64,000 nt of DNA from Myxococcota bacterium (GTDB lineage Bacteria; Myxococcota_A; UBA9160; UBA6930). The DNA is taken from positions 1,152,001 through 1,216,000 of the forward strand of contig OZ245002.1 of NCBI GenBank assembly GCA_965223415.1, in the 5' to 3' direction. The notes beneath the pieces were generated by a model. It saw only the letters and a program-made list of their open reading frames with translations, was not told the DNA's origin and made no database searches. The stretch's first letter is position 1. Each line of letters begins with the position of its first letter. The translations under genes and the position numbers were made by a program. Positions 1,286-30,398 of this stretch are shown one piece after another.

Positions 1286-1411
1286 GCCGGCGTGGCCGAG
1301 ATGTCCCCCCGGGTCATCCCGCGCGGGGCGCGGGTAACGTGGGGGGGCGGGTCCGACGTGAGCATGGGATCTCCAGAGCACCGGGCCGTTGGGCACTTCG
1401 GCGCGACCGTC

Positions 1412-1438
1412 GCATCGGCCTCCCCGGTGCCCCGCTGA
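1412..1438 (-). promoter_or_regulatory. sigma28 (FliA/WhiG)-like promoter
   Basis: TCAG-N15-GCCGATGC upstream of the kinase; established consensus is TAAA/TCAA-N15-GCCGATAA. Confidence 0.55.
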
Positions 1439-1474
1439 AGCGGTTGCCGGAGGGCGAAAGCCCCGGGAAATGCG

Positions 1475-1502
1475 TCAGGTGCAGGCCCGGGACGGTCGAA
1501 AA
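1475..1502 (+). promoter_or_regulatory. sigma28-like promoter
   Basis: TCAG-N16-GTCGAAAA upstream of the MFP-DGC operon. Confidence 0.5.
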
Positions 1503-1533
1503 GGGGGGCTCGCGTACCTCGCTCGGAGACCTC

Positions 1534-2535
1534 GTGTCCGGATCGCCGCCCTCATGGATCGAATCGCCGCGGAAGATGATGGCGGCCGGAGCGCTGCTGG
1601 TGGTCCTCGTCGCGGCGGTGCCGGCGTTCATCGCGACCGAGCGAAGCCGCCCCGGCGAGCCGGCGATGGACACGGCCGGAGCGCCGCAACCGACCGCCGA
1701 GCCGATGCCCGCCGCGGACCCGCTCGCGCCCCCGCCGGACGATTGGCTGGCCCAGGAGGGCGAGCCGGCCCAGGCGCGAGTCAGCGAGGACCCGGACGGT
1801 GCCCTGGACTGCCTGGTCCAGCCTTCCCGGATCGTCGAGATCGGAAGCCAGACGATCGGGCTGATCGAGAAGATCCACGTGGAGCGCGGCGAGCGGGTCG
1901 AGGCCGACCAGGTCGTCGTGGAGCTCGAAGCCGGCGTCGAGGCCGAAGCGGTCCGGGTCGCGCGCATGCGCGCGTCCCTCGAGGGCTCCCTGCGCGCCCA
2001 CGAGGAGAGCGTCGCCCTCAGCAAGAAGCGCAAGCAGCGGGGCGCCAAGCTGTTCCGTCGGAACGCGGTCTCGGCCGACGCCCACGACGAGCTCGAATCC
2101 CAGGCCCGGCTCGCCCAGCACGAGCTGCTCCAGGCCCAGGAGGCGCGACGCCTTGCGGCGCTCGAGTTGCGGCAGGCGAAGGCCGTACTCGCGCGCCGCA
2201 CCCTGCACAGCCCGATCTCCGGCGTCGTCGTCGAACGCCTGCTCGAGGAAGGCGAGGTGGTGGACGAGGAGACGGTGCTGAGGATCGCCCGCATCGATCC
2301 CCTGCGCGTCGACGTGCTGCTCCCGGCGAGCCGCTACGGAACCGTGAAGGAAGGCATGCGGGCGACGATCTCGCCGGAGTTCCCGGTCGACGCGAGCGTG
2401 GTGGCCACGGTCGCCATCGTCGACCCGATCATCGACGCCGCGAGCGGCACCTTCAGCGTGCGGTTAGACCTTCCCAACGAGGACGGTCGGATCCCGGGTG
2501 GTCTCCACTGCACGGTGAAGTTCCTGGGCGAATAG
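1534..2535 (+). CDS. Periplasmic adaptor / membrane fusion protein (HlyD/RND MFP)
   Basis: N-terminal TM; lipoyl halves (IGSQTIGLIEKIHVERGERV; LHSPISGVVVERLLEEGE); coiled coil; VDPIIDAASGTFSVRLDLPN. Start is GTG 1534 after GGAG, or ATG 1576. Confidence 0.85.
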   Translation: MSGSPPSWIESPRKMMAAGALLVVLVAAVPAFIATERSRPGEPAMDTAGAPQPTAEPMPAADPLAPPPDDWLAQEGEPAQARVSEDPDGALDCLVQPSRIVEIGSQTIGLIEKIHVERGERVEADQVVVELEAGVEAEAVRVARMRASLEGSLRAHEESVALSKKRKQRGAKLFRRNAVSADAHDELESQARLAQHELLQAQEARRLAALELRQAKAVLARRTLHSPISGVVVERLLEEGEVVDEETVLRIARIDPLRVDVLLPASRYGTVKEGMRATISPEFPVDASVVATVAIVDPIIDAASGTFSVRLDLPNEDGRIPGGLHCTVKFLGE

Positions 2536-2541
2536 CCGCCG

Positions 2542-4026
2542 ATGGGCTCCTTCAGACCGATCGCACGGATCAGCTTCGGGCTGGTCCTGCTGACGAGCAC
2601 GATCCTGACAGGCCTCGACCTGGTCGGCTGGCTCCCTCGCCCCCAGGCGAGGGACGCGGAGCTTCGCGTCCACATCGCCGAATCGGTGGCGTCCCAGGCG
2701 ATGGCCGGAATCGACCGGGGCGACATGCGCGCCGTGCTTGGCTCCCTGAACATCGCCGTCGAGCGCAGCGAGGAGGTCGTGTCGGCGGGCGTTCGCTCGT
2801 CGAACGGGCGGCTGATCGCCCAGGCGGGCCCCCATGCCGAGGTCTGGAACCCTCCGGACGACGGCCGCTCGACCACCGAGCACATTCGCGTTCCCATCTT
2901 TCGCGACGGCGGCGAGTGGGGCGCGGTGGAGATCCGTTTCCAGGAGCCCCACGCGGACCTCGTCGGCAGCCTCTGGAACAACCCCCTGCTCCGGATCGTG
3001 GGCGTCGTCGGTCTGCTGGGCTTCGTGGCCTACGGGCTCTACATGCGCCGCACCCTCCGTTACCTCGACCCGTCGGCCGTCATTCCCACGCGGGTCCAGG
3101 CCACCCTCGACGTGATGACCGAAGGCGTCATCGTGATCGATCGCAGCGACGACGTCGTGATGGCCAACGAGGCCTTCGCCTCGAGGTTTTCCCTCCAGCC
3201 CGCGGACATGATGGGACGAAAGGCCTCTTCCTTCGGTTGGCGGGACCGGCGGGGCGAGGAGATCGTCGGCCAGCTGCCCTGGATGCGCGCCATGACCGAC
3301 GCCGAGCCCTTCGTGGGCGAGACGATCACCTTGAACCGCAGCGAGCAGGAACGCGTCGTGCTCACGGTCAACGGCGCGCCGGTCCTCGACGGTTGGGGCC
3401 GGCCCACCGGCGCGATCGTCACCTTCGACGACGTCACCGAGCTCGAACGCAACCGCGCGGAGCTGCAGCAGGCCCTCACCGAGCTCGAGAAGTCCCGCGA
3501 CGAGATCCGCCTCCAGAACGAGGAGCTCCAGCAGCTCGCCCGCAGCGACCCCCTGACCGGCGCCGCCAACCGGCGGAGCTTCATGGAGGACGTGGAGCCG
3601 CTCTTCTCACGCATCCAAGCCGACGGCGGCGAGCTCGCCTGCCTGATGGTGGACATCGACCACTTCAAGCGGGTCAACGACGAGCACGGCCACCTCACCG
3701 GCGACGAGGTGATCAAGCGCGTCGCCGAGGCCCTGATCTCCCAGCTCGGCGGAACCGGCATCGTGTGCCGGTACGGCGGCGAGGAGTTCTGCGTGGCCCT
3801 GCCGGACACCCTCCCGGAAGAAGCCGAAGCCCTGGGCGAGCGCGTGCGCCGCCAGATCGGGGCCCCGGGCTTCGCCAGCGTCCCGATCACCGCAAGCCTG
3901 GGGGTCGCTACGCTGCGAAGCGGCGCCTCCGACATCACCGCCCTGATCGACCAGGCGGACCAGGCGCTCTACTCCTCGAAGGAGAACGGGCGGAACCGGC
4001 TGACGCGGTTCGTCCGGACCTCCTGA
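2542..4026 (+). CDS. Membrane-anchored PAS diguanylate cyclase
   Basis: Two TMs, PAS, coiled coil, DPLTGAANRR, DIDHFKRVNDEHGHLTGD, RYGGEEF. Confidence 0.93.
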   Translation: MGSFRPIARISFGLVLLTSTILTGLDLVGWLPRPQARDAELRVHIAESVASQAMAGIDRGDMRAVLGSLNIAVERSEEVVSAGVRSSNGRLIAQAGPHAEVWNPPDDGRSTTEHIRVPIFRDGGEWGAVEIRFQEPHADLVGSLWNNPLLRIVGVVGLLGFVAYGLYMRRTLRYLDPSAVIPTRVQATLDVMTEGVIVIDRSDDVVMANEAFASRFSLQPADMMGRKASSFGWRDRRGEEIVGQLPWMRAMTDAEPFVGETITLNRSEQERVVLTVNGAPVLDGWGRPTGAIVTFDDVTELERNRAELQQALTELEKSRDEIRLQNEELQQLARSDPLTGAANRRSFMEDVEPLFSRIQADGGELACLMVDIDHFKRVNDEHGHLTGDEVIKRVAEALISQLGGTGIVCRYGGEEFCVALPDTLPEEAEALGERVRRQIGAPGFASVPITASLGVATLRSGASDITALIDQADQALYSSKENGRNRLTRFVRTS

Positions 4027-4067
4027 GGACGGGATCGGACGGTCGGGGCGGTGCGATCGACCTGCGC

Positions 4068-6056
4068 CTACTCCGCCGACCCCGCGAACGAAAGCGTCCG
4101 CTCCAACTCCGCCTCGCTCTTCATCAGCTGCGCCCGCTGCGCCGCATGGGCCCGCTCGAGTCGCCGCTGCACCCAGCCCACCCACGCGCGGGAGAGGCGC
4201 TCGCTGCCGGGCACGCTCCGGGCGACGAACGCGCGGAGGATGGCGATCGCCCAGGCCGGGCTGTGCTCCGCGAGCCAGGGGTCTTCGAGGGAGAGAATCT
4301 GCTCGAAGGAGCCGGCGTCGCCCTGGCGGCCGCAGCGGCCGAAGAGCTGGCGGTCGATGCGGCTGGCTTCGGCCCGTTCGACCGAGAGCACATGGAGGCC
4401 GCCGAGCTTCTCGACGTCGTCGGGGACGCGGATGTCCGAGCCGCGGCCGGCCATGTTCGTGGCCACGGTGACGCGCGCGCGCTCGCCGGCCTCACCGACG
4501 ATCTCGGCTTCGCCGGCGTCCTGGCGGGCGTTGAGGACGCGGTGGGGGAGGCGCGCGCGCTCCAGGATGGCGGCCAGCGCCTCCGAGGATCGGACGGAGT
4601 GGGTTCCCACCAGGACCGGACGACCGGAGGCGTGGAGACGACGCAGGCGCTGTACCACCGCGTTCGACTTCGCGGCGGCGGTCGGGAGGATCCGCACGCC
4701 CTGATCGATACGGCGGGAAGGGCGACGCGGCTCGACCCGGATCATCGGCAGGCCGTACACCTCGTCGATCTCGGGGCCGACCTCGCGGCCGGTGCCGGTC
4801 ATGCCGGCGAGCCGCAGGTAGCGACGGTAGAACTGCTGGTAGCTGATGCGCGCGATGGTCTCGCGCTCGCCGGAGACCTCGCAGCCTTCCTTGAGCTCGA
4901 TCATCTGCTGGAGGCCGCCCTCCCAGGAGCGATCGGGCATGGAGCGACCGGTCTGGGCGTCGACGATCTCGACCTTGCCATCGCGCACGATGTAGTCCTC
5001 GTCGCGCACGAAACCCCGCTGGGCGGTGAGGGCCACCCGGATCAGCTCGGCCCGACGCAGGGGCGCGTTCCAGACGCCGCCCTTGCCGGCCGAGAGGCCG
5101 GCGATCCTCTCGCGGCCGGAATCCGTGACGTCGGCACTGCGCCCGTCCCGCGAGAGCCGGAAGTCCCGGCCCTCCTCCAGGCCTTCGGCCACCTCCATGG
5201 CCTCGCGAACGATCTGCTCGAGTCCGGGAGCCGGCACGTTGCGGGAGAGGATGAGGGGCGTGCGGGCCTCGTCGATCAGCACGCTGTCCGCTTCGTCGAC
5301 GATCGCGAAGCACAGACCGCGCAGTAGGAGGCCCCTGCGGCCACCCTGCCCCGCCGCGCCGAGGCGCTTCACCTCGCCCCGCAGCAGCTCGCTGCGATTC
5401 GGGCGCTCGAGACGATCGCGCAGGTAGTCGAAGGCGACCTGCTTGTTCGTCACGTAGGTGACGTCGCAGGCGTAGGCCGCGCGTCGGATGTCGGGATCCG
5501 GGTCCGTGTCGATCACGGTTCCCACGCTCAGGCCGAGCGCCCGGTAGAGGGGCCCCATGATCTCGGCGTCGCGCTCGACCAGGTAGTCGTTCACGGTGAT
5601 CACGTGGACGGGCACGCCGGCCAGCGCCGCCACCGCGGCGGGGAGCGTGGCGGAGAGGGTCTTCCCCTCGCCGGTATCGAGCTCCACGAGCATGCCCTGG
5701 AGCATCGCCATGCCCGCCATGAGCTGGACCTCGAAGTGGGCCATCCCGAGCTCGCGACGCGCGTGCTCGCGCACCAGCGCGAGCGCCTCGTGGAGTGGAT
5801 CGCCCGCCAGCTCCCGCCGTAGGGCCGGCCGGACGTCGCCGAGGCGACGCACGAGCTCCTCGGCCGAGGCGTCTCGCAGCGCGTTGGAGCGGGCGACCAC
5901 TTCCCCGGCCCGCGCCGCCAGCTCCTCGGTGCCCAGGCGCTCGCCCCGCAGCCGCTCCCGGAGCCGGTTCACGCGGTGCTCGAGCTTCGGGGGACGAGGC
6001 TGCACGCGCTCCGGGTAGCCGCCGTGCAGCACGCCGGGCCGGAAGACCTCAGACAC
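4068..6056 (-). CDS. Accessory, C-terminally truncated SecA-like ATPase (~662 aa)
   Basis: ELDTGEGKT, VHVITVNDYLVERDA, FDYLRD, IVDEADSVLIDEARTPLILS, GMTGT, VATNMAGRGSDI, RIDRQLFGRCGRQGDAG. Ends soon after NBD2. GTG 6056 overlaps the upstream stop. Confidence 0.9.
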   Translation of the reverse strand: MSEVFRPGVLHGGYPERVQPRPPKLEHRVNRLRERLRGERLGTEELAARAGEVVARSNALRDASAEELVRRLGDVRPALRRELAGDPLHEALALVREHARRELGMAHFEVQLMAGMAMLQGMLVELDTGEGKTLSATLPAAVAALAGVPVHVITVNDYLVERDAEIMGPLYRALGLSVGTVIDTDPDPDIRRAAYACDVTYVTNKQVAFDYLRDRLERPNRSELLRGEVKRLGAAGQGGRRGLLLRGLCFAIVDEADSVLIDEARTPLILSRNVPAPGLEQIVREAMEVAEGLEEGRDFRLSRDGRSADVTDSGRERIAGLSAGKGGVWNAPLRRAELIRVALTAQRGFVRDEDYIVRDGKVEIVDAQTGRSMPDRSWEGGLQQMIELKEGCEVSGERETIARISYQQFYRRYLRLAGMTGTGREVGPEIDEVYGLPMIRVEPRRPSRRIDQGVRILPTAAAKSNAVVQRLRRLHASGRPVLVGTHSVRSSEALAAILERARLPHRVLNARQDAGEAEIVGEAGERARVTVATNMAGRGSDIRVPDDVEKLGGLHVLSVERAEASRIDRQLFGRCGRQGDAGSFEQILSLEDPWLAEHSPAWAIAILRAFVARSVPGSERLSRAWVGWVQRRLERAHAAQRAQLMKSEAELERTLSFAGSAE

Positions 6057-8196
6057 GGAGCTGGTCCATGAAGAGCCTGCGGACGCCGCGGGCGAGCCGG
6101 AAACCGATCGGCTCGGCGCCGTGCTCGAAGCGCACCCGCGCCAGTGCACCGAGGCCGGGAACGGACGCTCCGGGCTCGAGCCGCACGTCGAATTGGAAGA
6201 GCGACTCGAGGGCAGTCAGCCCCTGCTGGTCCCGGCTATCGACCGCGACCTCCCCACCGCCGGCGGCGCCGAGCGCCAGGCTCGGGAGGCGATCCGTGGC
6301 CTGGGGCACCTCGCGCTCCAGGCGGGCTTCACGTGTCGCGCTCGTACCCGGGAAGCGCACGCTCACGGCCCGCGTGGCCGCCCGGACCCAGGCGGCGTCT
6401 TCCTGCGGCACGACCACGCGCACAGTGGAGTCTCCGGCAATCTCCAGGTAGCCGATGACGGCCCCCTTCTCGAAGAAGCGGCCGGTCAAGTCCTCGGCGC
6501 GCGGCAGGACCAGACGTCCCGTGGCTTGTGCGCGGACGATCCCTTCCTCGAGCCGCTCGCGCGCGCGTCGCAGCTCTGCGCGAACCGAAGCCAGCTCGAC
6601 CCGCGCCACCTCGGCACCGACCCGGTCGCGGGGCTGCTTGGAATCGAGGCGCGCGCGTGCCTCCCGCTCGCGCGCCTCCAAGGCCCGCAGCTCCGCGGTG
6701 AGGAGGTCGTCGCGAATCTCGAGGAGAGGCGTGCCCGGCCCCACCTCGCTCCCGGGCTCGGCAAGGATCCGGTGCACCACGCCCCCCGCGCCGGCACGCA
6801 CCTGGGCCTGCTCCGGGAGCCAGACCACGCCCTCGGCGAGGGTCCACATCGGAAACGGCAGCACGAAGAGGAGCAGGGCCACGGCGACGACCGACGCCGC
6901 GGCACGGCCTGCCACCTGGAGCGGACGCTCTCCCACTCGCGGATCCCGGTGCAGTGCCAGCAGTCCCTTCGCGGCGGGGATTCCGACCTGCAGCACCAGG
7001 GACCAGATCGCGAGAGCGACGCCGACGCTGAAGAAGCGGCTGGCGACGAAGAGCGCGATCGAGGTGGTGAGGAAGATCCGATAGACGAAGGCCAGCACGC
7101 CGTAGCCGGCGAGCCAGACGCGTTCGTCAGGTGCGACCGCCTGGGGACGGCGCTCCGGAAGGCCCAGAATGCCCGTCTCGGCCAGGTAGCGCAGGTATTT
7201 GTTCGCGCGCGTCGCCAGATTCGGCATCTCGAGCGCGTCGGCCAGCACGTAGTAGCCGTCGAAGCGGATCAGCGGATTGCCGTTGAACAGCAGCGTGGAG
7301 ATGCCGCCGATCGCCATGACCTGGAACGCCGCCAGCTTGACGACTCCCGGTGAGACCGCGATCCAGAGGAACAGGGCGAGAGAGGCCAGGGCAAGCTCGA
7401 CGATCACCCCGGCAGCACCGACCACCATGCGCGGGCGCTTGCGCGGGAACACCCAGGTGCCGGAGGCATCGACGTAGGGCACGGGCATGCCGAGCAGCAG
7501 CATGATCCCGATCTCGTGGACCGGCGCGCCCCAGTGCTTCGCGGCGAAGGCGTGCCCCAGCTCGTGAAGCGTCTTCACGATGGGGTAGATCACGACGAGC
7601 ATCACCAGGCTCATCGGATCCCAGAGCATGTCCCGCGTGTAAGAGGCGAGCTCGCTTCCATGGGCCACCGCCGTCACACCGCCGGCGACGACGAGGAAGC
7701 ACCAGAGCCACCAGGCGATGCGCGTGAAGAGGGGCGCGACGCGGCCCCGATGGCGTTCGAGCCAGGCATCCGGGTCCCAGAGCGGGATGCGGACGTAGAG
7801 CGGGTTCTTGAAGCGGGTGGCGATCGACTGCTGGCGGGCGTGGTGGACATGGCGCGCAAAGAGCTGGCTCGTGTCGGGCGAGACGTCGCATAGCATCGCG
7901 TCCGCCGAGTTCAGCTGGGCGAGGAGCGCGATCATCTGGCCCTGGGTGGGTGCGTCGTCGCCCAGCCGGTCGAGGGCGGCGTCCCAGATCTCGGCGACCG
8001 TCCGCCGCCCGTCCATCTGGGAGACGACGAAGTGGGCCGAGGGCGGGAAGCGATGCTGCCGCCGCGCCGTCGCGTTCTCGAGGATGTACCAGCGCTGGCC
8101 CCGATAGACGTGCCGGTGGATGCGCACGTGGGCGCGGAGGCGCGGGCGCAGCTCGGCCACGCGGTACCAGAAGGGGCTGAACAGCCGCTCGCCCAC
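6049..8196 (-). CDS. PqqD-like + M50 (site-2 protease) + HlyD fusion protein
   Basis: N-terminal MDGRRTVAEIW...ALLAQL (PqqD-like); TMs with HELGH and NGNPLIRFDGYY; C-terminal lipoyl/coiled-coil adaptor. GTG overlaps the upstream TAG. Confidence 0.85.
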   Translation of the reverse strand: MGERLFSPFWYRVAELRPRLRAHVRIHRHVYRGQRWYILENATARRQHRFPPSAHFVVSQMDGRRTVAEIWDAALDRLGDDAPTQGQMIALLAQLNSADAMLCDVSPDTSQLFARHVHHARQQSIATRFKNPLYVRIPLWDPDAWLERHRGRVAPLFTRIAWWLWCFLVVAGGVTAVAHGSELASYTRDMLWDPMSLVMLVVIYPIVKTLHELGHAFAAKHWGAPVHEIGIMLLLGMPVPYVDASGTWVFPRKRPRMVVGAAGVIVELALASLALFLWIAVSPGVVKLAAFQVMAIGGISTLLFNGNPLIRFDGYYVLADALEMPNLATRANKYLRYLAETGILGLPERRPQAVAPDERVWLAGYGVLAFVYRIFLTTSIALFVASRFFSVGVALAIWSLVLQVGIPAAKGLLALHRDPRVGERPLQVAGRAAASVVAVALLLFVLPFPMWTLAEGVVWLPEQAQVRAGAGGVVHRILAEPGSEVGPGTPLLEIRDDLLTAELRALEAREREARARLDSKQPRDRVGAEVARVELASVRAELRRARERLEEGIVRAQATGRLVLPRAEDLTGRFFEKGAVIGYLEIAGDSTVRVVVPQEDAAWVRAATRAVSVRFPGTSATREARLEREVPQATDRLPSLALGAAGGGEVAVDSRDQQGLTALESLFQFDVRLEPGASVPGLGALARVRFEHGAEPIGFRLARGVRRLFMDQLRV

Positions 8197-9989: not shown

Positions 9990-9997
9990 CCCCGGGA

Positions 9998-10025
9998 ACA
10001 TCGGCCTGCACGCCTGGTTTCCTGA
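9998..10025 (-). promoter_or_regulatory. sigma28-like promoter
   Basis: TCAG-N16-GCCGATGT, 8 nt before ATG 9989. Confidence 0.6.
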
Positions 10026-10131
10026 GGACTTCCAGCGGGTTGCCTCCCATCTCACCCCGGAATGAGGGTCTTCTGCCGCTTCGATGCGTCCTCTCGATCG
10101 ACTAAATTGTGTGATTTTCAACCCATTTTCT

Positions 10132-10159
10132 TCAAGCGAGGCTTCGGGCGCTCCGATGA
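10132..10159 (+). promoter_or_regulatory. sigma28-like promoter
   Basis: TCAA-N16-TCCGATGA upstream of the giant gene. Confidence 0.5.
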
Positions 10160-10239
10160 GTGCGGATACCGACCCCCGCGCACCGGCGCGAAGTGCCACG
10201 CCGGCGGGAGGGACACGAGCAGACAAGGAGAGCGCGCCT

Positions 10240-16200: not shown

Positions 16201-19200
16201 GCTTCGGTCGCCGAGAACGCGATCGCTGGGGCTCGGGTGGCGGATGCCCTCGGCGTCGCGGATCCCGACGCTGACGATACCCACACCTTCTCGCTGATCG
16301 ACGACGCGGGAGGCCGCTTCGCGATCGATTCGGTCACCGGCGAGATCACCGTGGCGGATGGAAGCCTGCTCGACTACGAAACCGCGACGAGCCACACCGT
16401 CACGGTACGCGCGACGGACGCCGGGGGCCTGAGCTACGACGAGGCCCTGGTCATCTCCCTGCTCGACGTCGACGAGGCCCCCTCGGCGGTGGCCGACGCC
16501 GCGACCGTCGGCGAGGGCGCAAGCGTCACGATCGACCTGGCCGCCAACGACGCCGATCCGGAGGGTGCCCTCGACCTGACCTCGATCCAGATCATCTCCG
16601 GCCCCGCCAACGGCACCTTGGTGGACAATGGCGACGGTACCCTCACCTACACCCACGATGGCTCCGAGACCGTTGGCGACAGCTTCTCCTACACCATCGA
16701 TGACGTCTCGGGGGCTGCCTCCAACGTCGCCTCGGTCACCCTGACGGTCACGCCCCAGAACGACGCCCCGACTGCGGCGAACGATGCGGCCACGGTCGAC
16801 GAGGGCAGCTCCGTCGTCATCAATCTCACCGGAAACGACTCCGACCCCGACAACGCCCTCGACCTCTCCTCGATCACGATCACCTCGGGCCCCGCCAACG
16901 GCACGCTGGTCGACCACGGCGACGGCACCTTCACCTACACCCACGATGGCTCCGAGACCGTTGGCGACAGCTTCTCCTACACCATCGATGACGTCTCGGG
17001 GGCTGCCTCCAACGTCGCCTCGGTCACCCTGACGGTCACGCCGCAGAACGATGCCCCGACTGCCACCAACGATGCGGCCACGGTCGACGAGGGCAGCTCC
17101 GTCGTGATCAATCTCACCGGAAACGACTCCGACCCCGACAACGCCCTCGATCTCTCCTCGATCACGATCACCAGCGGTCCCGCCAACGGCACGCTCGTCG
17201 ACCACGGCGACGGCACCCTCACCTACACCCACGATGGCTCCGAGACCGTTGGCGACTCCTTCTCCTACACCATCGACGACGTCTCGGGCGCCACCTCGAA
17301 CGTCGCCTCGGTCACCCTGACGGTCACGCCGCAGAACGATGCCCCGACTGCCACCAACGATGCGGCCACGGTCGACGAGGGCAGCTCCGTCGTGATCAAC
17401 CTGGCTGGGAACGACTCGGACCCGGACAACGCCCTCGACCTCTCCTCGATCACGATCACCTCGGGCCCCGCCAACGGCACCCTGGTGGACAATGGCGATG
17501 GCACCCTCACCTACACCCACGATGGCTCCGAGACCGTTGGCGACTCCTTCTCCTACAGCATCGATGACGTCTCGGGCGCCACCTCGAACGTCGCCTCCGT
17601 CACCCTGACGGTCACGCCGCAGAACGATGCCCCGACTGCCACCAACGATGCGGCCACGGTCGACGAGGGCAGCTCCGTCGTGATCAACCTGGCTGGGAAC
17701 GACTCGGACCCGGACAACGCCCTCGACCTCTCCTCGATCACGATCACCTCGGGCCCCGCCAACGGCACCCTGGTGGACAATGGCGATGGCACCCTCACCT
17801 ACACCCACGATGGCTCCGAGACCGTTGGCGACTCCTTCTCCTACAGCATCGATGACGTCTCGGGCGCCACCTCCAACGTCGCCTCCGTCACCCTGACCGT
17901 CACGCCCCAGAACGACGCCCCGACCGCCGCCAACGATGCGGCCACGGTCGACGAGGGCAGCTCCGTCGTGATCAACCTGGCCGGGAACGACTCGGATCCG
18001 GACAACGCTCTCGACCTCTCCTCGATCACGATCACCTCGGGTCCGACCAACGGCACGCTGGTCGACCACGGCGACGGCACCTTCACCTACACCCACGATG
18101 GCTCCGAGACCGTCGGCGACAGCTTCTCCTACAGCATCGATGACGTCTCGGGCGCCACCTCGAACGTTGCCTCCGTCACCCTGACCGTCACGCCGCAGAA
18201 CGACGCCCCGACCGCCGCGAACGATGCGGCCACGGTCGACGAGGGGAGCTCCGTCGTCATCAACCTCACCGGGAACGACTCGGACCCGGACAACGCTCTC
18301 GACCTCTCCTCGATCACGATCACCTCGGGCCCCGCCAACGGCACCCTGGTGGACAATGGCGACGGCACCTTCACCTACACCCACGACGGCTCCGAGACCG
18401 TTGGCGACAGCTTCTCCTACACCATCGATGACGTCTCGGGGGCTGCCTCCAACGTCGCCTCGGTCACCCTGACGGTCACGCCCCAGAACGACGCCCCGAC
18501 TGCGGCGAACGATGCGGCCACGGTCGACGAGGGCAGCTCCGTCGTCATCAATCTCACCGGGAACGACTCGGATCCGGACAACGCTCTCGACCTCTCCTCG
18601 ATCACGATCACCAGCGGTCCCGCCAACGGCACGCTGGTCGACCACGGTGACGGCACCTTCACCTACACCCACGACGGCTCCGAGACCGTTGGCGACTCCT
18701 TCTCCTACACCATCGACGACGTCTCGGGCGCCACCTCCAACGTCGCCTCGGTCACCCTGACCGTCACGCCCCAGAACGACGCCCCGACTGCGGCGAACGA
18801 TGCGGCCACGGTCGACGAGGGCAGCTCCGTCGTCATCAATCTCACCGGGAACGACTCGGATCCGGACAACGCTCTCGACCTCTCCTCGATCACGATCACC
18901 AGCGGTCCCGCCAACGGCACGCTGGTCGACCACGGTGACGGCACCTTCACCTACACCCACGACGGCTCCGAGACCGTTGGCGACTCCTTCTCCTACACCA
19001 TCGACGACGTCTCGGGCGCCACCTCCAACGTCGCCTCGGTCACCCTGACCGTCACGCCCCAGAACGACGCCCCGACTGCGGCGAACGATGCGGCCACGGT
19101 CGACGAGGGCAGCTCCGTCGTCATCAACCTGGCCGGGAACGACTCGGACCCGGACAACGCCCTCGACCTCTCCTCGATCACGATCACCAGCGGTCCCGCC

Positions 19201-22200
19201 AACGGCACGCTCGTCGACCACGGCGACGGCACCCTCACCTACACCCACGATGGCTCCGAGACCGTTGGCGACTCCTTCTCCTACACCATCGACGACGTCT
19301 CGGGCGCCACCTCGAACGTCGCCTCGGTCACCCTGACCGTCACGCCCCAGAACGACGCCCCGACCGCCGCGAACGATGCGGCCACGGTCGACGAGGGCAG
19401 CTCCGTCGTGATCAACCTGGCCGGGAACGACTCGGACCCGGACAACGCTCTCGACCTCTCCTCGATCACGATCACCAGCGGTCCCGCCAACGGCACGCTC
19501 GTCGACCACGGCGACGGCACCTTCACCTACACCCACGATGGCTCCGAGACCGTTGGCGACTCCTTCTCCTACACCATCGATGACGTCTCGGGCGCCACCT
19601 CGAACGTTGCCTCCGTCACCCTGACCGTCACGCCCCAGAACGACGCCCCGACTGCGGCGAACGATGCGGCCACCGTCGACGAGGGCAGCTCCGTCGTGAT
19701 CAACCTGGCCGGGAACGACTCGGACCCGGACAACGCCCTCGACCTCTCCTCGATCACGATCACCTCGGGCCCCGCCAACGGCACCCTGGTGGACAATGGC
19801 GATGGCACCCTCACCTACACCCACGATGGCTCCGAGACCGTTGGCGACTCCTTCACCTACACCATCGATGACGTCTCGGGCGCCACCTCGAACGTCGCCT
19901 CGGTCACCCTGACGGTCACGCCCCAGAACGACGCCCCGACTGCGGCGAACGATGCGGCCACCGTCGACGAGGGCAGCTCCGTCGTCATCAACCTGGCCGG
20001 GAACGACTCGGATCCGGACAACGCTCTCGACCTCTCCTCGATCACGATCACCAGCGGTCCCGCCAACGGCACGCTCGTCGACCACGGCGACGGCACCTTC
20101 ACCTACACCCACGATGGCTCCGAGACCGTTGGCGACTCCTTCTCCTACACCATCGATGACGTCTCGGGCGCCACCTCGAACGTTGCCTCCGTCACCCTGA
20201 CCGTCACGCCCCAGAACGACGCCCCGACTGCGGCGAACGATGCGGCCACCGTCGACGAGGGCAGCTCCGTCGTGATCAACCTGGCCGGGAACGACTCGGA
20301 CCCGGACAACGCCCTCGACCTCTCCTCGATCACGATCACCTCGGGCCCCGCCAACGGCACCCTGGTGGACAATGGCGATGGCACCCTCACCTACACCCAC
20401 GATGGCTCCGAGACCGTTGGCGACTCCTTCACCTACACCATCGATGACGTCTCGGGCGCCACCTCGAACGTCGCCTCGGTCACCCTGACGGTCACGCCCC
20501 AGAACGACGCCCCGACTGCGGCGAACGATGCGGCCACCGTCGACGAGGGCAGCTCCGTCGTCATCAACCTGGCCGGGAACGACTCGGATCCGGACAACGC
20601 TCTCGACCTCTCCTCGATCACGATCACCAGCGGTCCCGCCAACGGCACGCTGGTCGACCACGGTGACGGCACCTTCACCTACACCCACGACGGCTCCGAG
20701 ACCGTTGGCGACTCCTTCTCCTACACCATCGACGACGTCTCGGGCGCCACCTCCAACGTCGCCTCGGTCACCCTGACCGTCACGCCCCAGAACGACGCCC
20801 CGACTGCGGCGAACGATGCGGCCACGGTCGACGAGGGCAGCTCCGTCGTCATCAACCTGGCCGGGAACGACTCGGACCCGGACAACGCCCTCGACCTCTC
20901 CTCGATCACGATCACCAGCGGTCCCGCCAACGGCACGCTCGTCGACCACGGCGACGGCACCCTCACCTACACCCACGATGGCTCCGAGACCGTTGGCGAC
21001 TCCTTCTCCTACACCATCGACGACGTCTCGGGCGCCACCTCGAACGTCGCCTCGGTCACCCTGACCGTCACGCCCCAGAACGACGCCCCGACCGCCGCGA
21101 ACGATGCGGCCACGGTCGACGAGGGCAGCTCCGTCGTGATCAACCTGGCCGGGAACGACTCGGACCCGGACAACGCTCTCGACCTCTCCTCGATCACGAT
21201 CACCAGCGGTCCCGCCAACGGCACGCTCGTCGACCACGGCGACGGCACCTTCACCTACACCCACGATGGCTCCGAGACCGTTGGCGACTCCTTCTCCTAC
21301 ACCATCGATGACGTCTCGGGCGCCACCTCGAACGTTGCCTCCGTCACCCTGACCGTCACGCCCCAGAACGACGCCCCGACTGCGGCGAACGATGCGGCCA
21401 CCGTCGACGAGGGCAGCTCCGTCGTGATCAACCTGGCCGGGAACGACTCGGACCCGGACAACGCCCTCGACCTCTCCTCGATCACGATCACCTCGGGCCC
21501 CGCCAACGGCACCCTGGTGGACAATGGCGATGGCACCCTCACCTACACCCACGATGGCTCCGAGACCGTTGGCGACTCCTTCACCTACACCATCGATGAC
21601 GTCTCGGGCGCCACCTCGAACGTCGCCTCGGTCACCCTGACGGTCACGCCCCAGAACGACGCCCCGACTGCGGCGAACGATGCGGCCACCGTCGACGAGG
21701 GCAGCTCCGTCGTCATCAACCTGGCCGGGAACGACTCGGATCCGGACAACGCTCTCGACCTCTCCTCGATCACGATCACCAGCGGTCCCGCCAACGGCAC
21801 GCTGGTCGACCACGGTGACGGCACCTTCACCTACACCCACGACGGCTCCGAGACCGTTGGCGACTCCTTCTCCTACACCATCGACGACGTCTCGGGCGCC
21901 ACCTCCAACGTCGCCTCGGTCACCCTGACCGTCACGCCCCAGAACGACGCCCCGACTGCGGCGAACGATGCGGCCACCGTCGACGAGGGCAGCTCCGTCG
22001 TCATCAACCTGGCCGGGAACGACTCGGACCCGGACAACGCCCTCGACCTCTCCTCGATCACGATCACCAGCGGTCCCGCCAACGGCACGCTCGTCGACCA
22101 CGGCGACGGCACCCTCACCTACACCCACGATGGCTCCGAGACCGTCGGCGACTCCTTCTCCTACACCATCGATGACGTCTCGGGCGCCACCTCCAACGTC

Positions 22201-23988
22201 GCCTCCGTCACCCTGACGGTCACGCCCCAGAACGACAGCCCGATCCTCGGCAACAACGCCCTCACGATCTCCGAGGGTGGCGCGGTCATCCTCTCCAGCA
22301 CGGATCTCTCGGCCACCGACGCCGAGACCGGCGCTGGCCTCCTTCAGTTCACCGTCTCCGGCGTGACCGGCGGCCGGTTCGAGCTGGTCGGCAGCCCGGG
22401 CGTCCCGATCACCTCCTTCACCCAGGCCCAGGTCGCCGCCGGCCAGGTCCAGTTCGTCCATGACGGCGGCGAGGCGGCACCGGCCTATTCCGTCACGGTC
22501 TCGGACAGCGCCCTTATCGACGGCCCGCTCGCCGCGACCATCACTTTCACGAATGTTAACGACGTCCCCACCATCATCGACCAGCCCATGAGCGTGGACG
22601 AGAACACGCCCGCCGGGGCGCTGGTGGGCGCGGTGGCGGCCGGCGACGCGGACGCGGGCGACGCTCTCGTCTTCTCCATCACCGGCGGCAACACCGGTGG
22701 TGCGTTCGCGATCGATCCCGCCAACGGCGACCTCTTCGTCGCGGATCCCGCGCCGATCGATTTCGAGGTCAACCCGACGATCGCCCTGACGGTAACGGTC
22801 GAGGACCTGGCGGGTGCCACGGACTCGGCGACGGTCACAGTGAGCGTCCTGAACCTGAACGAGCCGCTCTCGATCACGGGACCGGGCGGCCTGAGCCTCG
22901 CACCCGGAGCCAGCCTGGTCTTCTCCACCACCGGGGGCACGTCGATCGCGATCAGCGATCCCGACGGACCGACGGCGCCGTTGGAGCTCACCCTCTCCGC
23001 GACGGGCGGCACGATGACGCTGCCGACCACCGCCGGGCTGGCGATGCTGGCGGGGACCGGTGCGGGCGACGCGACGATGACCTTCCGGGGCACGGTGGCG
23101 GCGGTGCAGACGGCACTCGAAGGCCTGGCCTTCGACTCCGACGGCAGCGCGAGCGCGGGCGTTGCCCTCGCGGCCACCGATCTCGGCCCGGGCGGCACGG
23201 CGGCCAGCGCCAACTTCGGCATCGCGGTCCAGACCGTCACGACGCCGACGCCCACGACCCCGCCGCCGGTCGATCCACCGGTGGACCCGCCGATCTCGCT
23301 CCCGCCCACCGAGATCACCGACCCGGCCGACCCCGAGGCACCGACCACGCGGAGCGGTCCGGAGAGCAGCGCCCCGGAGCCCGCTTCGCCGGCCCCGGAG
23401 CCCGTCGCCACCCCGACCAGCCTGGGACCGGCCCCTGGCTTCTCGGTTCCGAACAGGTACCAGATCGAACACGTGGAGTTCCGGCAGATCGAAGCGAACG
23501 ACGCGGAGGCGGCCCTGGTGGAAGGCACACCGCTGACACCCAGGGAGGATCTCTCGCCGCGGGAACACCGCGCCGGTGAGGTGCCGTTCGACCTCGGCCT
23601 GCTCCGCGCGAGCTTTGTCCATCCCGACTTCCTGGCCTCCCTCGATCGCATGCGCCAGGACGTGCTGGAGTCCGATCGCGAGACGTCCGGCGAACGGGAC
23701 TGGTTCGTCCCGGCGATCGAGAGCATCGCCATGGTCGCGACCACGGGCCTGCTCGCCGGCGTGCTGCGGGCCAGCTCGCTGCTGGCGGCGGCGATCTCCG
23801 CGGTGCCGCTCTGGAAGCAGGCCGACCCGCTGATGATCCTCTCGCTCTCGAAGGACGAGCGGCGGGACCTCGAGGCGAGCCTTCGCCACGAGCAGGGCCG
23901 TGAACGCGCCCTGGACGCAGTCCTCGACCGCCGGCCCCGTGCCGACGAGGCCGGGGAAGCGGAAGACGAGGAGACCCCGGAGGAGTAG
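10240..23988 (+). CDS. Giant repetitive surface protein/adhesin (LEPRxLL leader, DUF4347, DNRLRE-like, LamG-like, PKD, beta-propellers, cadherin/Ig-like repeats, Pro-rich linker, hydrophobic C-terminal motif)
   Basis: Single 13.7-kb ORF. Likely start TTG 10240 after AAGGAG (alternative ATG 10156). ALEALEPRVLLS; ELVFVDTGVEDYQRL...IHVVSHG...LLFYGCDLA...GGDWTLE (DUF4347); FGPDGHLYV repeats; LDYET cadherin. Confidence 0.92.
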   Translation: MARRRRRQRKKAERKKVLQQPGQPALEALEPRVLLSTFTVAPEADSLEEAMSAADPATGAIEFTLNADPAAAVDEVAVESRSELVFVDTGVEDYQRLVDDLRAASPDGRTVEVFLLDTERDGVEQISEILSDHQGVDAIHVVSHGTDGAVQLGDTWLSGDTLARYETDLMGWAEALSAEADLLFYGCDLAAGASGNALVQSIAKLTGADVAASEDLTGAKALGGDWTLEVATGDVETSLAFSETLQRSWSATLETATFQQGVGGYTGTLDTEIDSANPGTTLGSSVTLEADTVNSSGGVSQGLLQFGDLFGTGPGRIPLGSTITSATLELNVTDATGASANVALHRMLTPWDESSTWNSLSGGVQFDDVEAMIAADGQVATPAATGPITVSGLESALQSWSDGAGNHGWVIDITSSNAWVVSTSEDATASLRPKLTVEYVAPNSVAVASDDSLNTTEGIPVVFDPTSNDTDADSEAVSIVEFTQPANGTVVDNGDGTLTYTPDGGFSGADTFDYLAIDAGSGLQHHWGLAGNATDSIGGADGSRIGTTTVPGNLGSGLSFDEIDDHVLLPDISYASEFTVSFDFKVDENNGSLVQYLYSHGDVNSTNSLNVFLLEGAHTTDPNMLRTVIRDGNDTLDNSALQVDIASLVGDSQWHTYTLTVGAAGAEVFIDGVLSNSASYGSDGLDPAGDVHLGARHDLDPDRFFGGSLDSVQLYSRALSSTEVSDLASRANRATAVVTVAAEPTPTVSASGSSTITAGAVYTLNLSSANLGTISGWTINWGDGTIDAVAGDPGSVDHVYTQAGMTHEITVSATDENGTFTSSRLLTASDHNSTVYLLDGSTGDIAQKLPTSPELARSTGATIGPDGNFYVASLDTDSIVRFDGSTGAFLGTFVSAGSGGLDQPMGLDFGADGNLYVASYVTHEVLRYDAATGAFIDAFVPSTAGVNGPTSVEFGPDGHLYVASWSSGMVHRFDGSTGAFIDDFADTGGAGATDVAFGPDGHLYVSSALQNRVFEFDGVNGASLDSFAVSSAYSLEFGPDGHLYVSRWGYDLIEEYDPDSNTLLGTFADAADGIDGPWGIDFTPNQQVTVLANPAPTAVNDLAAVNEGGSVIIDVAGNDSDPNNALDLSSIAVTSGPANGSLVDNGDGTLTYTHDGSETVGDSFSYTVDDVLGASSNVASVTLTVTPQNDSPSVVGLHNDELNYTEGSGTVILEQGGDVLVSDVDSADFAGGSLNVEVDSGLVATEDVFAIRNQGSGAGQIGIVGSDVTYGGVVIGSFVGGTGVTPLTVSFNSNATATAVTHLVRNITYENLDLEDPTEGARSVTVDITDGDGGTSGTQNLTVNVTAVNDQAIADLDGADGAGRDFSATFTEGTGPVGVTDADATVSDVDDSDFAGLGINLSDFLDGTSEKITIAGYTFAFGVPEVVIRTIGSTDFEIDFDGSGFTISRDISGNMPQADLQTLVRGITYENTSSDPTTGDRSFDIIPQDGGGLNGLSSTATISVVATNTAPTALDDAASVDEGASVVIDLSGNDSDPDNALDLGSIVITSGPANGTLVDNGDGTLTYTHDGSETMGDGFSYTIQDASGATSNVASVTLTVTPVNEAPTDVVFDSESTAERSLNTYGTGDQMDPAIAALPDGGFVAVWVSQGQDGDGYGIYGRRFDAASVAVGSEFLVTSEISDHETNPSVTAFADGGFAVAWQDQASGVNAWTEARVFAADGTPASGEFRLSPGLDGDHEGYQPAVVALNADEFVAVWANEVGGSTYEVVGRIYDRAGNAVSGQFSVGSLASGSGLFGAQTEVARLDDGGFAVVWRTHDGANLGTRVRVMNADGTPRSAELVLAGDDIGDVAALSSGGFVVTYDASGDLHASIFDASGVSVAGPVKVNTTSSAARYESSVARSDDGFVVAWESSAGDGSGSSVLAQRFDANGTRIDAEILVNETTTGNQVKPELVETSSGQVVAVWQSENVDADLSGIASRVVATGSASVAENAIAGARVADALGVADPDADDTHTFSLIDDAGGRFAIDSVTGEITVADGSLLDYETATSHTVTVRATDAGGLSYDEALVISLLDVDEAPSAVADAATVGEGASVTIDLAANDADPEGALDLTSIQIISGPANGTLVDNGDGTLTYTHDGSETVGDSFSYTIDDVSGAASNVASVTLTVTPQNDAPTAANDAATVDEGSSVVINLTGNDSDPDNALDLSSITITSGPANGTLVDHGDGTFTYTHDGSETVGDSFSYTIDDVSGAASNVASVTLTVTPQNDAPTATNDAATVDEGSSVVINLTGNDSDPDNALDLSSITITSGPANGTLVDHGDGTLTYTHDGSETVGDSFSYTIDDVSGATSNVASVTLTVTPQNDAPTATNDAATVDEGSSVVINLAGNDSDPDNALDLSSITITSGPANGTLVDNGDGTLTYTHDGSETVGDSFSYSIDDVSGATSNVASVTLTVTPQNDAPTATNDAATVDEGSSVVINLAGNDSDPDNALDLSSITITSGPANGTLVDNGDGTLTYTHDGSETVGDSFSYSIDDVSGATSNVASVTLTVTPQNDAPTAANDAATVDEGSSVVINLAGNDSDPDNALDLSSITITSGPTNGTLVDHGDGTFTYTHDGSETVGDSFSYSIDDVSGATSNVASVTLTVTPQNDAPTAANDAATVDEGSSVVINLTGNDSDPDNALDLSSITITSGPANGTLVDNGDGTFTYTHDGSETVGDSFSYTIDDVSGAASNVASVTLTVTPQNDAPTAANDAATVDEGSSVVINLTGNDSDPDNALDLSSITITSGPANGTLVDHGDGTFTYTHDGSETVGDSFSYTIDDVSGATSNVASVTLTVTPQNDAPTAANDAATVDEGSSVVINLTGNDSDPDNALDLSSITITSGPANGTLVDHGDGTFTYTHDGSETVGDSFSYTIDDVSGATSNVASVTLTVTPQNDAPTAANDAATVDEGSSVVINLAGNDSDPDNALDLSSITITSGPANGTLVDHGDGTLTYTHDGSETVGDSFSYTIDDVSGATSNVASVTLTVTPQNDAPTAANDAATVDEGSSVVINLAGNDSDPDNALDLSSITITSGPANGTLVDHGDGTFTYTHDGSETVGDSFSYTIDDVSGATSNVASVTLTVTPQNDAPTAANDAATVDEGSSVVINLAGNDSDPDNALDLSSITITSGPANGTLVDNGDGTLTYTHDGSETVGDSFTYTIDDVSGATSNVASVTLTVTPQNDAPTAANDAATVDEGSSVVINLAGNDSDPDNALDLSSITITSGPANGTLVDHGDGTFTYTHDGSETVGDSFSYTIDDVSGATSNVASVTLTVTPQNDAPTAANDAATVDEGSSVVINLAGNDSDPDNALDLSSITITSGPANGTLVDNGDGTLTYTHDGSETVGDSFTYTIDDVSGATSNVASVTLTVTPQNDAPTAANDAATVDEGSSVVINLAGNDSDPDNALDLSSITITSGPANGTLVDHGDGTFTYTHDGSETVGDSFSYTIDDVSGATSNVASVTLTVTPQNDAPTAANDAATVDEGSSVVINLAGNDSDPDNALDLSSITITSGPANGTLVDHGDGTLTYTHDGSETVGDSFSYTIDDVSGATSNVASVTLTVTPQNDAPTAANDAATVDEGSSVVINLAGNDSDPDNALDLSSITITSGPANGTLVDHGDGTFTYTHDGSETVGDSFSYTIDDVSGATSNVASVTLTVTPQNDAPTAANDAATVDEGSSVVINLAGNDSDPDNALDLSSITITSGPANGTLVDNGDGTLTYTHDGSETVGDSFTYTIDDVSGATSNVASVTLTVTPQNDAPTAANDAATVDEGSSVVINLAGNDSDPDNALDLSSITITSGPANGTLVDHGDGTFTYTHDGSETVGDSFSYTIDDVSGATSNVASVTLTVTPQNDAPTAANDAATVDEGSSVVINLAGNDSDPDNALDLSSITITSGPANGTLVDHGDGTLTYTHDGSETVGDSFSYTIDDVSGATSNVASVTLTVTPQNDSPILGNNALTISEGGAVILSSTDLSATDAETGAGLLQFTVSGVTGGRFELVGSPGVPITSFTQAQVAAGQVQFVHDGGEAAPAYSVTVSDSALIDGPLAATITFTNVNDVPTIIDQPMSVDENTPAGALVGAVAAGDADAGDALVFSITGGNTGGAFAIDPANGDLFVADPAPIDFEVNPTIALTVTVEDLAGATDSATVTVSVLNLNEPLSITGPGGLSLAPGASLVFSTTGGTSIAISDPDGPTAPLELTLSATGGTMTLPTTAGLAMLAGTGAGDATMTFRGTVAAVQTALEGLAFDSDGSASAGVALAATDLGPGGTAASANFGIAVQTVTTPTPTTPPPVDPPVDPPISLPPTEITDPADPEAPTTRSGPESSAPEPASPAPEPVATPTSLGPAPGFSVPNRYQIEHVEFRQIEANDAEAALVEGTPLTPREDLSPREHRAGEVPFDLGLLRASFVHPDFLASLDRMRQDVLESDRETSGERDWFVPAIESIAMVATTGLLAGVLRASSLLAAAISAVPLWKQADPLMILSLSKDERRDLEASLRHEQGRERALDAVLDRRPRADEAGEAEDEETPEE
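16468..22236 (+). repeat. Tandem array of 20 x 288-bp (96-aa) Ig/cadherin-like units
   Basis: QND codons recur every 288 bp from 16756 to 22228 (19 near-identical units), plus a more diverged first unit. Dispersed copies lie near 13520-13805 and 14760-15050. Confidence 0.97.
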
Positions 23989-24000: not shown

Positions 24001-24156
24001 CTAGCCCTCCGCGGCGTCGGCTCCGAACCCCACCGTGCAGCGCAGGCCCGCCGGGAGTTCCCGGTCCGGATTGGCGAGGCGCAGCTGCACGCGAAAGGTG
24101 CCGCTGGCGCGGTCGATGATGCGGTCGACGATGGTCACCCGGGCGGTGCGCGGCTC
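24001..24156 (-). pseudogene. C-terminal remnant of a HlyD/MFP paralogue
   Basis: EPRTARVTIVDRIIDRASGTFRVQLRLANPDRELPAGLRCTVGFG* aligns with the end of the 1534-2535 protein; an in-frame stop lies just upstream. Confidence 0.8.
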
Positions 24157-25743: not shown

Positions 25744-25750
25744 GATCCGT

Positions 25751-25778
25751 CCATCGGCCGACCCGAGAGGCGACCTGA
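25751..25778 (-). promoter_or_regulatory. sigma28-like promoter
   Basis: TCAG-N16-GCCGATGG, 7 nt before GTG 25743. Confidence 0.55.
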
Positions 25779-25814
25779 GACCGGGGAGCTCCGCGACGGC
25801 TCACCTTGTACCTC

Positions 25815-26000
25815 TGAGCAGGCTCTTCGGGCCTGAGTGAGACTCCGAGATGGGTTCCCGGGAAAGGCCGTCGCTGCCTGAAGCCAGAGAGCTTGTCCGT
25901 TAGATGGGCCTCCCGCCCTCGTCACCCATGCCGTGGAGTATCCGAGGCCCGAGAGCCTGCGTCTACAAGGTCCGTAGGTGAATGTGCAGGGTCGGGAGAC
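25815..26000 (+). ncRNA. Bridge RNA in the IS110 left non-coding end (boundaries approximate)
   Basis: 5' hairpin, then two internal-loop stems. GGAGTATC (25935-42) and TACAAG (25964-69) match the donor; CCGTTAG (25897-903) is the reverse complement of the right target flank. Confidence 0.85.
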
Positions 26001-26033
26001 CCGGGTCCCAGCTTATCACGGGGAGGAGAGACC

Positions 26034-27029: not shown

Positions 27030-27044
27030 CGACGAAGGGAGTAT

Positions 27045-27737: not shown

Positions 27738-27768
27738 CGGGGGGAGGACCTTTCTCTTCCCGCGTCCG

Positions 27769-28773: not shown

Positions 28774-28783
28774 GCAGGGGCCG

Positions 28784-30148: not shown

Positions 30149-30195
30149 GGGGGTCCCTTCGATCGAAGAGGCGTTTCCGATCCGGCCCCGGATAG

Positions 30196-30211
30196 AGCAA
30201 GCGCCATGCCA
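30196..30211 (-). promoter_or_regulatory. sigma54 -24/-12 promoter
   Basis: TGGCATGGCGCTTGCT fits TGGCAY-N5-TTGCW; about 48 nt upstream of ATG 30148. Confidence 0.8.
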
Positions 30212-30394: not shown

Positions 30395-30398
30395 TTCG

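Follow-up and report, generated by a model that had tools for sequence, protein, structure and literature searches.

A widespread, secretion-like gene cassette without an ABC transporter lies beside the gene of a giant adhesin-like protein in a Myxococcota genome, and this giant is the probable substrate of the cassette. The cassette is a member of the locus that was described from genomes by Kamneva, Poudel and Ward in 2015 (PMC4452313), so this is not its first description. The reading that we prefer, and to which we give about an even chance, is that giants with an N-terminal LEPR-XLL leader are exported in one step without an ABC transporter. The leader would be bound by an RRE domain and cut by an M50 peptidase, and the chain would leave N-terminus first through a ring of MFP domains and a shared TolC, with a short SecA as ratchet. 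The wider claim is held only tentatively: that this is a distinct class of bacterial secretion, in which a cleavable LEPR-XLL signal is read by an RRE and a protease-adaptor, a three-MFP ring and a fingerless SecA thread giants through TolC without ABC or SecY, the cargo being anchored by its C-tail and carrying its own caspase-fold domain. If that were true, the very largest proteins of bacteria, which reach tens of thousands of residues, would be exported N-terminus first by a route assembled from RiPP, Sec and efflux parts, and DUF4347 would receive its first functional assignment. For the question how LEPR-XLL giants exit the cell, the data point to a candidate signal (the motif of 12 residues), a candidate reader (the RRE), a candidate cutting enzyme and a candidate motor, all of which could be point-mutated in culturable hosts that have the cassette.

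The locus and its place among known systems

The window, as the whole analysed stretch of 64,000 nucleotides is called here, is part of a single-contig genome of 5.83 Mb that is 97% complete. ORF and family checks found every cassette gene where the initial annotation had placed it (Table 1). Its description of a coupled operon of GAF-MFP, PqqD-M50-MFP and truncated SecA, divergent from a giant of about 4,580 aa and with a third MFP nearby, was borne out. The minus-strand trio overlaps by 1 nt and 8 nt: the GAF-MFP stop and the M50 start have one nucleotide in common (TAGTG), the M50 stop overlaps the short-SecA start by 8 nt, and the giant of 4,582 aa starts 238 nt from the GAF-MFP gene in divergent orientation. 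The stand-alone MFP (MFP_A) and a PAS-GGDEF cyclase on the plus strand converge on this trio; for MFP_A the start is GTG 1534, with ATG 1576 as the alternative. Cassette, leader, DUF4347 and tail are each present in a single copy in the genome, and the single cassette is matched by a single leader-bearing protein. A promoter search at the locus gave no sigma-70 candidate, and no terminator there was convincing. Long opposite-strand or off-frame ORFs (e.g., 1389..5327 on the plus strand) were discarded on the basis of codon-position GC and absence of homologues. A public-run contig spans window positions 1300-13400 with 0 differences, but is possibly the assembly's own source and thus not independent support. 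Just beyond the stop codon of the giant, the remnant of a second MFP_A suggests that the cassette was once duplicated or rearranged. Past the giant, signalling genes for a receiver-histidine kinase, a receiver protein and a membrane histidine kinase occupy window positions 24607-32975 on the minus strand, and two ORFs in this run (27769-28818 and 28784-30349) have no Pfam match.

Table 1. Features of the locus; positions are those of the window.
Feature	Position	Strand	Evidence
MFP_A, stand-alone MFP with N-terminal hydrophobic anchor, 333 aa	1534..2535	+	TIGR01730 (114 bits, cut-off 94.9); PF16576, PF13437; hydropathy
PAS-GGDEF diguanylate cyclase, membrane-anchored, GGEEF intact	2542..4026	+	PF00990, PAS; operon with MFP_A
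Short SecA paralogue, 662 aa	4068..6056	-	PF07517, PF01043, PF21090; no wing/scaffold family match
RRE(PqqD)-M50-MFP fusion, 715 aa	6049..8196	-	HELGH, NGNPLIRFDG; NF041824; structure model
GAF-MFP fusion, 601 aa: cytoplasmic GAF, helix 338-356, periplasmic MFP	8196..10001	-	PF01590 over cut-off, PF13437, PF16576; hydropathy
Giant adhesin-like protein, 4,582 aa	10240..23988	+	TTG start behind AAGGAG
Basic N-terminus and LEPR-XLL leader motif ALEALEPRVLLS, candidate export signal	10240..10347	+	NF012209; 34-locus alignment
DUF4347	10489..10998	+	PF14252 (E 3.5e-60)
Laminin-G, PKD, beta-propeller; likely ligand-binding head	11929..13320	+	PF13385, PF18911, PF08450
19 tandem 96-aa Ig-like (tandem-95) repeats, mean identity 97%	16759..22230	+	NF012211, 24 stretches
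Pro-rich linker, then hydrophobic helical C-tail; candidate anchor or stop-transfer	23230..23922	+	Tail profile; no Pfam
Remnant of second MFP_A copy, C-terminal 41 aa, stop-bounded	24025..24147	-	61% aa and 74% nt identity to MFP_A

Profile searches of the window found no OEP/TolC, RND or ABC_membrane genes, in agreement with the earlier statement that no ABC or RND pump or TolC is adjacent, and the closest ABC ATPase to the cassette lies at about window position 58,700. No HlyD- or LssB-type T1SS gene scored over cut-off anywhere in the genome with the models TIGR03375 and TIGR01843, and no cognate ABC transporter lies at the locus. The MFP of a canonical type I system is represented by three MFP domains, the giant has 0 RTX nonapeptides, and an uncleaved C-terminal signal is not seen, the C-termini of the family being different from each other. 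In the surveyed loci no ABC exporter closer than about 14 kb to the cassette was seen (BLAST classes). A genome search for the cognate TolC, which had been proposed as a check, yielded an unlinked candidate and none at the locus: the genome holds two OEP genes, one of them CusC-like, versus about ten RND pumps. The other is an orphan TolC-family gene near secDF, rpoN and uvrC (G000:C1:5179255-5181036), the only non-metal-efflux one of the genome, which must serve about ten RND pumps. Of 121 surveyed loci, 13 have a TolC within the cassette; the TolC candidate of this genome is an unlinked orphan, which bears hardly any resemblance to the cassette-linked TolCs of relatives.

Several known systems share parts with this locus. 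Peptidase-containing ABC transporters (PCATs) read and cut an N-terminal leader. Giant-adhesin type I secretion (LapBCE-LapA, HlyBD-TolC) shares with the locus the MFP-TolC tunnel, an Ig-repeat cargo and a c-di-GMP gene nearby. In contrast to all of these, the cassette of the window combines three different MFPs with a zinc instead of a C39 peptidase, and it has neither an ABC domain nor a cargo with RTX repeats. Its giant, with a candidate N-terminal signal and a possible C-terminal anchor, is the mirror image of LapA. The accessory SecA2/SecY2 and SecA2-only systems of Gram-positive bacteria likewise have a second SecA beside a giant surface protein. However, the short SecA scores under all SecA2 cut-offs, is about 110-120 aa shorter than the models and has MFP partners, and no secY or Asp genes were found in the annotated loci.

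The closest relative is the four-gene locus that Kamneva, Poudel and Ward reported in five phyla, with OEP and SapC genes in some cases. In the accessible parts of their paper the missing ABC transporter is noted, SecA is proposed as the ATPase and M50 as the pore, and META1p2399-2402 of Methylobacterium extorquens AM1 and SPO2714-2718 of R. pomeroyi are given as examples; in M. extorquens only the GAF gene was expressed (PMC4452313). The locus of the window has the same four genes in the same order, with M50/HlyD, GAF/HlyD and HlyD genes adjacent, no ABC transporter, and a second SecA_DEAD protein that is without most of SecA_SW, the wing-scaffold, next to a separate canonical SecA elsewhere. 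It differs from the published locus in having a giant with DUF4347 and the tail, as well as a diguanylate cyclase, and in lacking SapC, DUF3467 and a linked OEP; neither SapC nor DUF3467 turned up anywhere in this 97%-complete genome. The main text of PMC4452313, and its supplements as far as they were searched, contain no giant, adhesin, PqqD/RRE, leader or substrate. The initial annotation had called the locus the best candidate for an uncharacterised system. The locus and the SecA and M50 roles had in fact been proposed in 2015, but no experimental study of the cassette was found in the mostly open-access literature searched. The same literature yielded no account of the substrate link, the leader/RRE logic, the fingerless or accessory SecA, or the DUF4347-tail-cyclase subtype.

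LEPR-XLL giants have been reported from other bacteria. According to the available portion of a preprint, Cag_663 and Cag_665 of Chlorobium chlorochromatii (20,000-36,000 aa) lack known transport signals, carry an N-terminal LEPRxLL and lie beside TolC and SapC, and a recently acquired secA (Cag_1676) is co-expressed. These giants reportedly pause in the periplasm before they are exported, and SapC/TolC/HlyD is the route proposed (10.64898/2026.03.19.712371). The likeness to the present system consists of LEPRxLL giants near TolC/SapC and the co-expressed secA, the difference of the proposed SapC/TolC/HlyD route; M50 is not mentioned in the main text as far as it was available. In the portions available, wingless SecA domains are described inside Omnitrophota giants (West-Roberts, 2023), and a Vibrio paper mentions a LEPR-XLL giant.

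Recurrence of the cassette with LEPR-XLL giants

The recurrence of the gene set in genomes, metagenomes and plasmids indicates that the locus is more than a chance arrangement. A gene-neighbourhood survey, which had been suggested as a check, showed that the genes co-occur. It scored 191 genomes of the class for M50-MFP (present in 48), the LEPR-XLL leader (38) and the short SecA (41). M50-MFP was present in 36 of the 38 leader genomes, the leader in 2 of the 143 genomes without M50-MFP, and the short SecA was always accompanied by M50-MFP (41/41); these genomes are related, and the counts overstate their independence. A match to NF012209 is absent from 12 of the 48 M50 genomes, three of which carry a leader variant beside the cassette, and most of the other M50 genomes without a leader match are fragmented. 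Outside the class, only four partial, distant matches were found among 301 genomes of the phylum sample. In G253, G309, G343 and G349, from other classes of the phylum, the RRE-M50 matches have an open frame of 407-485 aa that stops before the MFP part.

A wider set of 121 loci comprised the window, 30 of 71 genome matches (those on long contigs), the best 80 of 568 metagenome matches and 10 of 23 plasmid records. An alignment query performed better than a search with a single M50 protein, which returned one locus only. A giant-like ORF was present in 26/31 genome loci, 9/10 plasmid loci and 20/24 metagenome loci of at least 12 kb, the call being compositional and including at least one unrelated protein (M038); the 3,472-aa giant G164c showed no leader motif in the scan. 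Most cassettes have an MFP_A homologue, and GAF-MFP was seen in 76 of the 80 metagenome loci, the remaining 4 having fewer than 210 bases upstream. In annotated plasmids a LEPR-XLL or other giant directly precedes the cassette, some with TolC inside. The best 12 short-SecA plasmid records are the same as the best 12 M50 plasmid records, and alphaproteobacterial plasmid copies that are arranged in the same way show 44-51% identity. Across 61 loci, the three coupled proteins have correlated pairwise distances (rho 0.76-0.85), which shared ancestry alone would also produce.

Two or three cassettes per genome occur in G168, G098, G100, G156 and G164, and two LEPR-XLL giants flank one cassette in L116/L117 (G162) and L132/L133 (G164). 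The giants of L122 (G092), L121 (G168) and L157 (G140) are broken by frame changes or N runs, and the M50 gene of G151 (L162/L163) is split across three frames, in each case by assembly error or decay.

Part of the loci form a subtype with a DUF4347 giant. A full-length orthologue of the cyclase lies beside the cassette in 14 of the 120 other loci, and 12 of these 14 show a DUF4347 giant. Tail and cyclase are confined to the DUF4347 subtype, while the leader spans the subtypes. DUF4347 giants (26 loci) and DUF3467/SapC genes (21 loci) had 0 co-occurrences among the 121 loci, many of which are short; DUF3467 or SapC may be the chaperone of the non-DUF4347 subtype.

Domains of the cassette proteins and the giant

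The structure model of the M50 fusion (pLDDT 80.5) contains three parts. Residues 16-103, with three strands and three helices in a PqqD-like fold, match the RREs of lasso peptides (6jx3, Z 8.8, rmsd 2.7, 84/85 residues; 5v1u, Z 8.7, 83/84), although a Z of 8.8 barely exceeds the chance range of the structure-search tool and PF05402 stays below cut-off. Residues 143-330 match the site-2 proteases RseP (7w6z, Z 9.3, over residues 192-324) and SpoIVFB (Z 8.9) in the model, with HExxH and NxxPxxxxDG in membrane helices and PF02163 below cut-off, and residues 449-693 match MexA (Z 13.1). A Foldseek search with the full model gave only MFPs among the matches listed. The predicted protein would have about seven membrane helices, which would place the HExxH/NP..DG site at the cytoplasmic face beside the RRE and leave the MFP in the periplasm. 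The best family match over RRE and M50 (residues 18-403) is the daptide protease NF041824 (E 1.7e-43), at 149 bits versus a cut-off of 300. In the available text of a preprint, the daptide protease MpaP/DapP is described as an RRE-fused intramembrane site-2 protease that removes the leader, and the L and M of the leader motif ELExMEAP are needed for RRE-dependent processing by MpaB/C (10.1101/2023.03.08.531785). Both proteins have an RRE N-terminal to a site-2 protease, and ELExMEAP resembles, by eye, the LExLEP or phi-E-x-L-E-P-R of the giants. In contrast, the protein of the window is fused to an MFP, its partner has 4,582 aa, and there are no daptide enzymes among the neighbours.

The initial annotation had proposed the M50 membrane domain as either channel or protease. 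The zinc ligands (HExxH, NP..D) are kept in 41/41 genome and plasmid loci, none of which was chosen on those motifs; metagenome loci, chosen by NGNP/DGYY motifs, were left out of this count. A full zinc site in every unselected locus argues for the predicted protease role, with or without a channel role, and the channel idea was already put forward by Kamneva et al. (2015). A supposed loss of the third zinc ligand in 7 loci was rejected, as the sequences read DA, DS or NLSP..DG.

The short SecA keeps the DEAD motor, Walker A, the DE-x-D motif and the PPXD, and its alignment to SecA of Bacillus subtilis stops at residue 601 of 778-841, so that the short protein has neither a wing nor a two-helix finger nor a C-tail. 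The two-helix finger is the element that pushes chains in canonical SecA. Walker A reads TGEGKT in 73/73 complete copies, and the protein terminates in a conserved LAFxGxxE, 72-80 aa past motif VI in the 69 copies with motif VI located (80 aa here). A single housekeeping SecA is encoded elsewhere in the genome. The short SecA directly follows the M50 gene in 83 of the 92 loci with enough sequence and is missing from 9/92. Among the latter is the single-contig, 95%-complete genome G089, which has an otherwise full cassette and the housekeeping SecA only. SecA-less cassettes are also found on plasmids of Thalassospira, Variovorax and Azospirillum (as seen in the plasmid sequences). The short SecA thus looks accessory: it is tied to the cassette, yet the cassette does not always need it. 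Of the earlier proposal that it is the motor, the intact motor motifs remain in favor; the missing two-helix finger and wing and its absence from nine cassettes speak against it.

The giant is the only ORF of the genome that matches the leader, DUF4347 or tail profiles, and it has no Sec signal and no RTX nonapeptides. Its NF012209 match (window 10312-10347, 22.3 bits versus a cut-off of 17) is the sole one in the genome. The consensus among giants is a basic stretch followed by phi-phi-E-x-L-E-P-R-x-L-L-S. The stretch upstream of the motif is net positive in 31/34 loci, and an E two residues before the motif, outside the selecting pattern, is present in 32/34; the invariance of E and R in this alignment is built into that pattern. 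No hydrophobic core is present in the leader, whose motif region is acidic. The leader recurs in different subtypes, and the C-termini vary.

DUF4347 is a predicted protease-fold domain (model pLDDT 86.5). The H, G, G and C of His144-Gly and Gly-Cys187 are invariant in 23/23 aligned copies. A comparison of the model with PDB folds gave Tce1 of Pseudomonas aeruginosa (9qpe, Z 13.9) and SAVED-CHAT (8tl0, Z 9.5), followed by middling scores for clostripain-like C11, legumain and caspases (Z 7-7.7); a sequence match in the PDB was not found. As in Tce1 and the clan CD proteases (caspase, CHAT, clostripain, legumain), the modeled fold is caspase-like with a His-Gly/Gly-Cys dyad at the strand ends, in contrast to an identity of at most 20%. 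The model points to a predicted cysteine protease of the caspase/CHAT clan (CD), which may process the giant that carries it. For P. aeruginosa PA0256 the accessible text says only that it holds an uncharacterised DUF4347.

The tail family has 4,927 cluster representatives at E<=0.001, and only unnamed Atlas clusters, no Pfam family, were matched. Among the best 150 tail matches, 19 have at least 1000 aa, of which 15 start with the leader and 4 inside repeats; the clusters of the seeds themselves account for three of the 19. Proline makes up 15% of the stretch ahead of the tail versus 4.5% further up (median, n=28). Many non-DUF4347 giants (e.g., L008, L019, L028, L037, L074 and L173) have a shorter hydrophobic helix with basic residues at the C-terminus, perhaps a simpler form of the anchor. 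The initial annotation did not mention a pairing of leader and RRE, the protease fold of DUF4347, the giant's hydrophobic tail or the conserved cyclase.

Possible routes for the giant across the envelope

An ABC-less export module serving the giant, as had been proposed, is supported by the co-occurrence and the domain anatomy. The preferred one-step route would resemble a peptidase-containing type I exporter with parts swapped. The cytoplasmic RRE would bind the basic phi-phi-E-x-L-E-P-R-x-L-L-S leader, in analogy to daptide RREs and ELExMEAP, and the M50 site would cut at or near it. The membrane helices of M50-MFP and GAF-MFP and a mixed ring of the three MFP domains would form the passage to a shared TolC, here possibly the orphan at G000 5179255, and on such a passage the chain would exit N-terminus first. 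Among the least certain steps, the short SecA might dock on this complex instead of SecYEG and act as a clamp or ratchet, of use for very long chains but not always required. Equally uncertain, the Pro-rich linker and hydrophobic tail of this subtype might keep the giant anchored in the envelope, where it would act as a surface adhesin; M50 or the predicted cysteine protease DUF4347 might release or mature it, and the adjacent cyclase might exert c-di-GMP control. Counting against this export model, cassettes without SecA (9/92) would need another source of energy; the locus also lacks a TolC of its own, and the genome as a whole has just two OEP genes next to about ten RND pumps.

Other readings fit part of the data. 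The cassette could be a regulatory trans-envelope apparatus, in which the giant is sensed or held by MFP and TolC, c-di-GMP signals pass through GAF and cyclase, and cleavage of the tail by the site-2 protease releases the giant, with export by another route. Membrane helices are the usual substrates of site-2 proteases, the tail forms a hydrophobic segment with a kink, and the cyclase is kept in 14 other loci; in addition, only the GAF gene was seen expressed in M. extorquens (PMC4452313, as far as available). Nevertheless, we regard this as very improbable, given that tail and cyclase are limited to the DUF4347 subtype whereas the leader occurs across subtypes, and that no canonical T1SS to do the export was found in the genome with TIGR03375 and TIGR01843. 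That the cassette exports a small RiPP-like peptide, the giant being a passenger of the island, would agree with a RiPP maturation protease as the nearest named family. This seems extremely improbable, because the annotated loci show no conserved small precursor or modifying enzyme, the giant is a conserved neighbor, and leader and cassette track each other across genomes.

Closer to the preferred one-step route, the short SecA could be the obligate motor and the M50 membrane domain mainly an inner-membrane pore, together replacing the ABC transporter, with proteolysis incidental, as proposed in the initial annotation and by Kamneva et al. (2015). The position of the gene directly after M50 in 83/92 loci, its absence, among the 191 genomes, from every one without M50, the invariant ATPase motifs and the lack of any other ATPase or membrane transporter in the cassette are all consistent with this. 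However, cassettes without SecA exist, including that of the closed genome G089, which has the housekeeping SecA only, the two-helix finger is missing from the short SecA, and the zinc ligands are universally kept, which makes this alternative unlikely. A two-step route, distinctly unlikely in our view, would lead through SecYEG by means of the short or the housekeeping SecA, the leader serving as an unusual signal that is removed by M50, and then from the MFP ring to TolC or a type II system. The basic N-region of the leader (31/34), the paralogy of SecA and the retention of housekeeping SecA in SecA-less genomes agree with it, and the periplasmic wait of the Chlorobium giants, as reported in the available part of the preprint (10.64898/2026.03.19.712371), fits two steps better than one. 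On the other hand, the leader is acidic at its motif and lacks a hydrophobic core, the short SecA is without the elements that insert into SecY, and there is no copy of secY in the annotated loci. The two-step route is also favored by a SecA-less Variovorax cassette (L180; plasmid CP063167, 1-25753), which consists of giant, TolC, MFP, MFP and M50 and lies directly upstream of the type II secretion operon gspG-K-L-M-D-E-F; the T2SS ATPase may stand in for SecA there or serve a second step.
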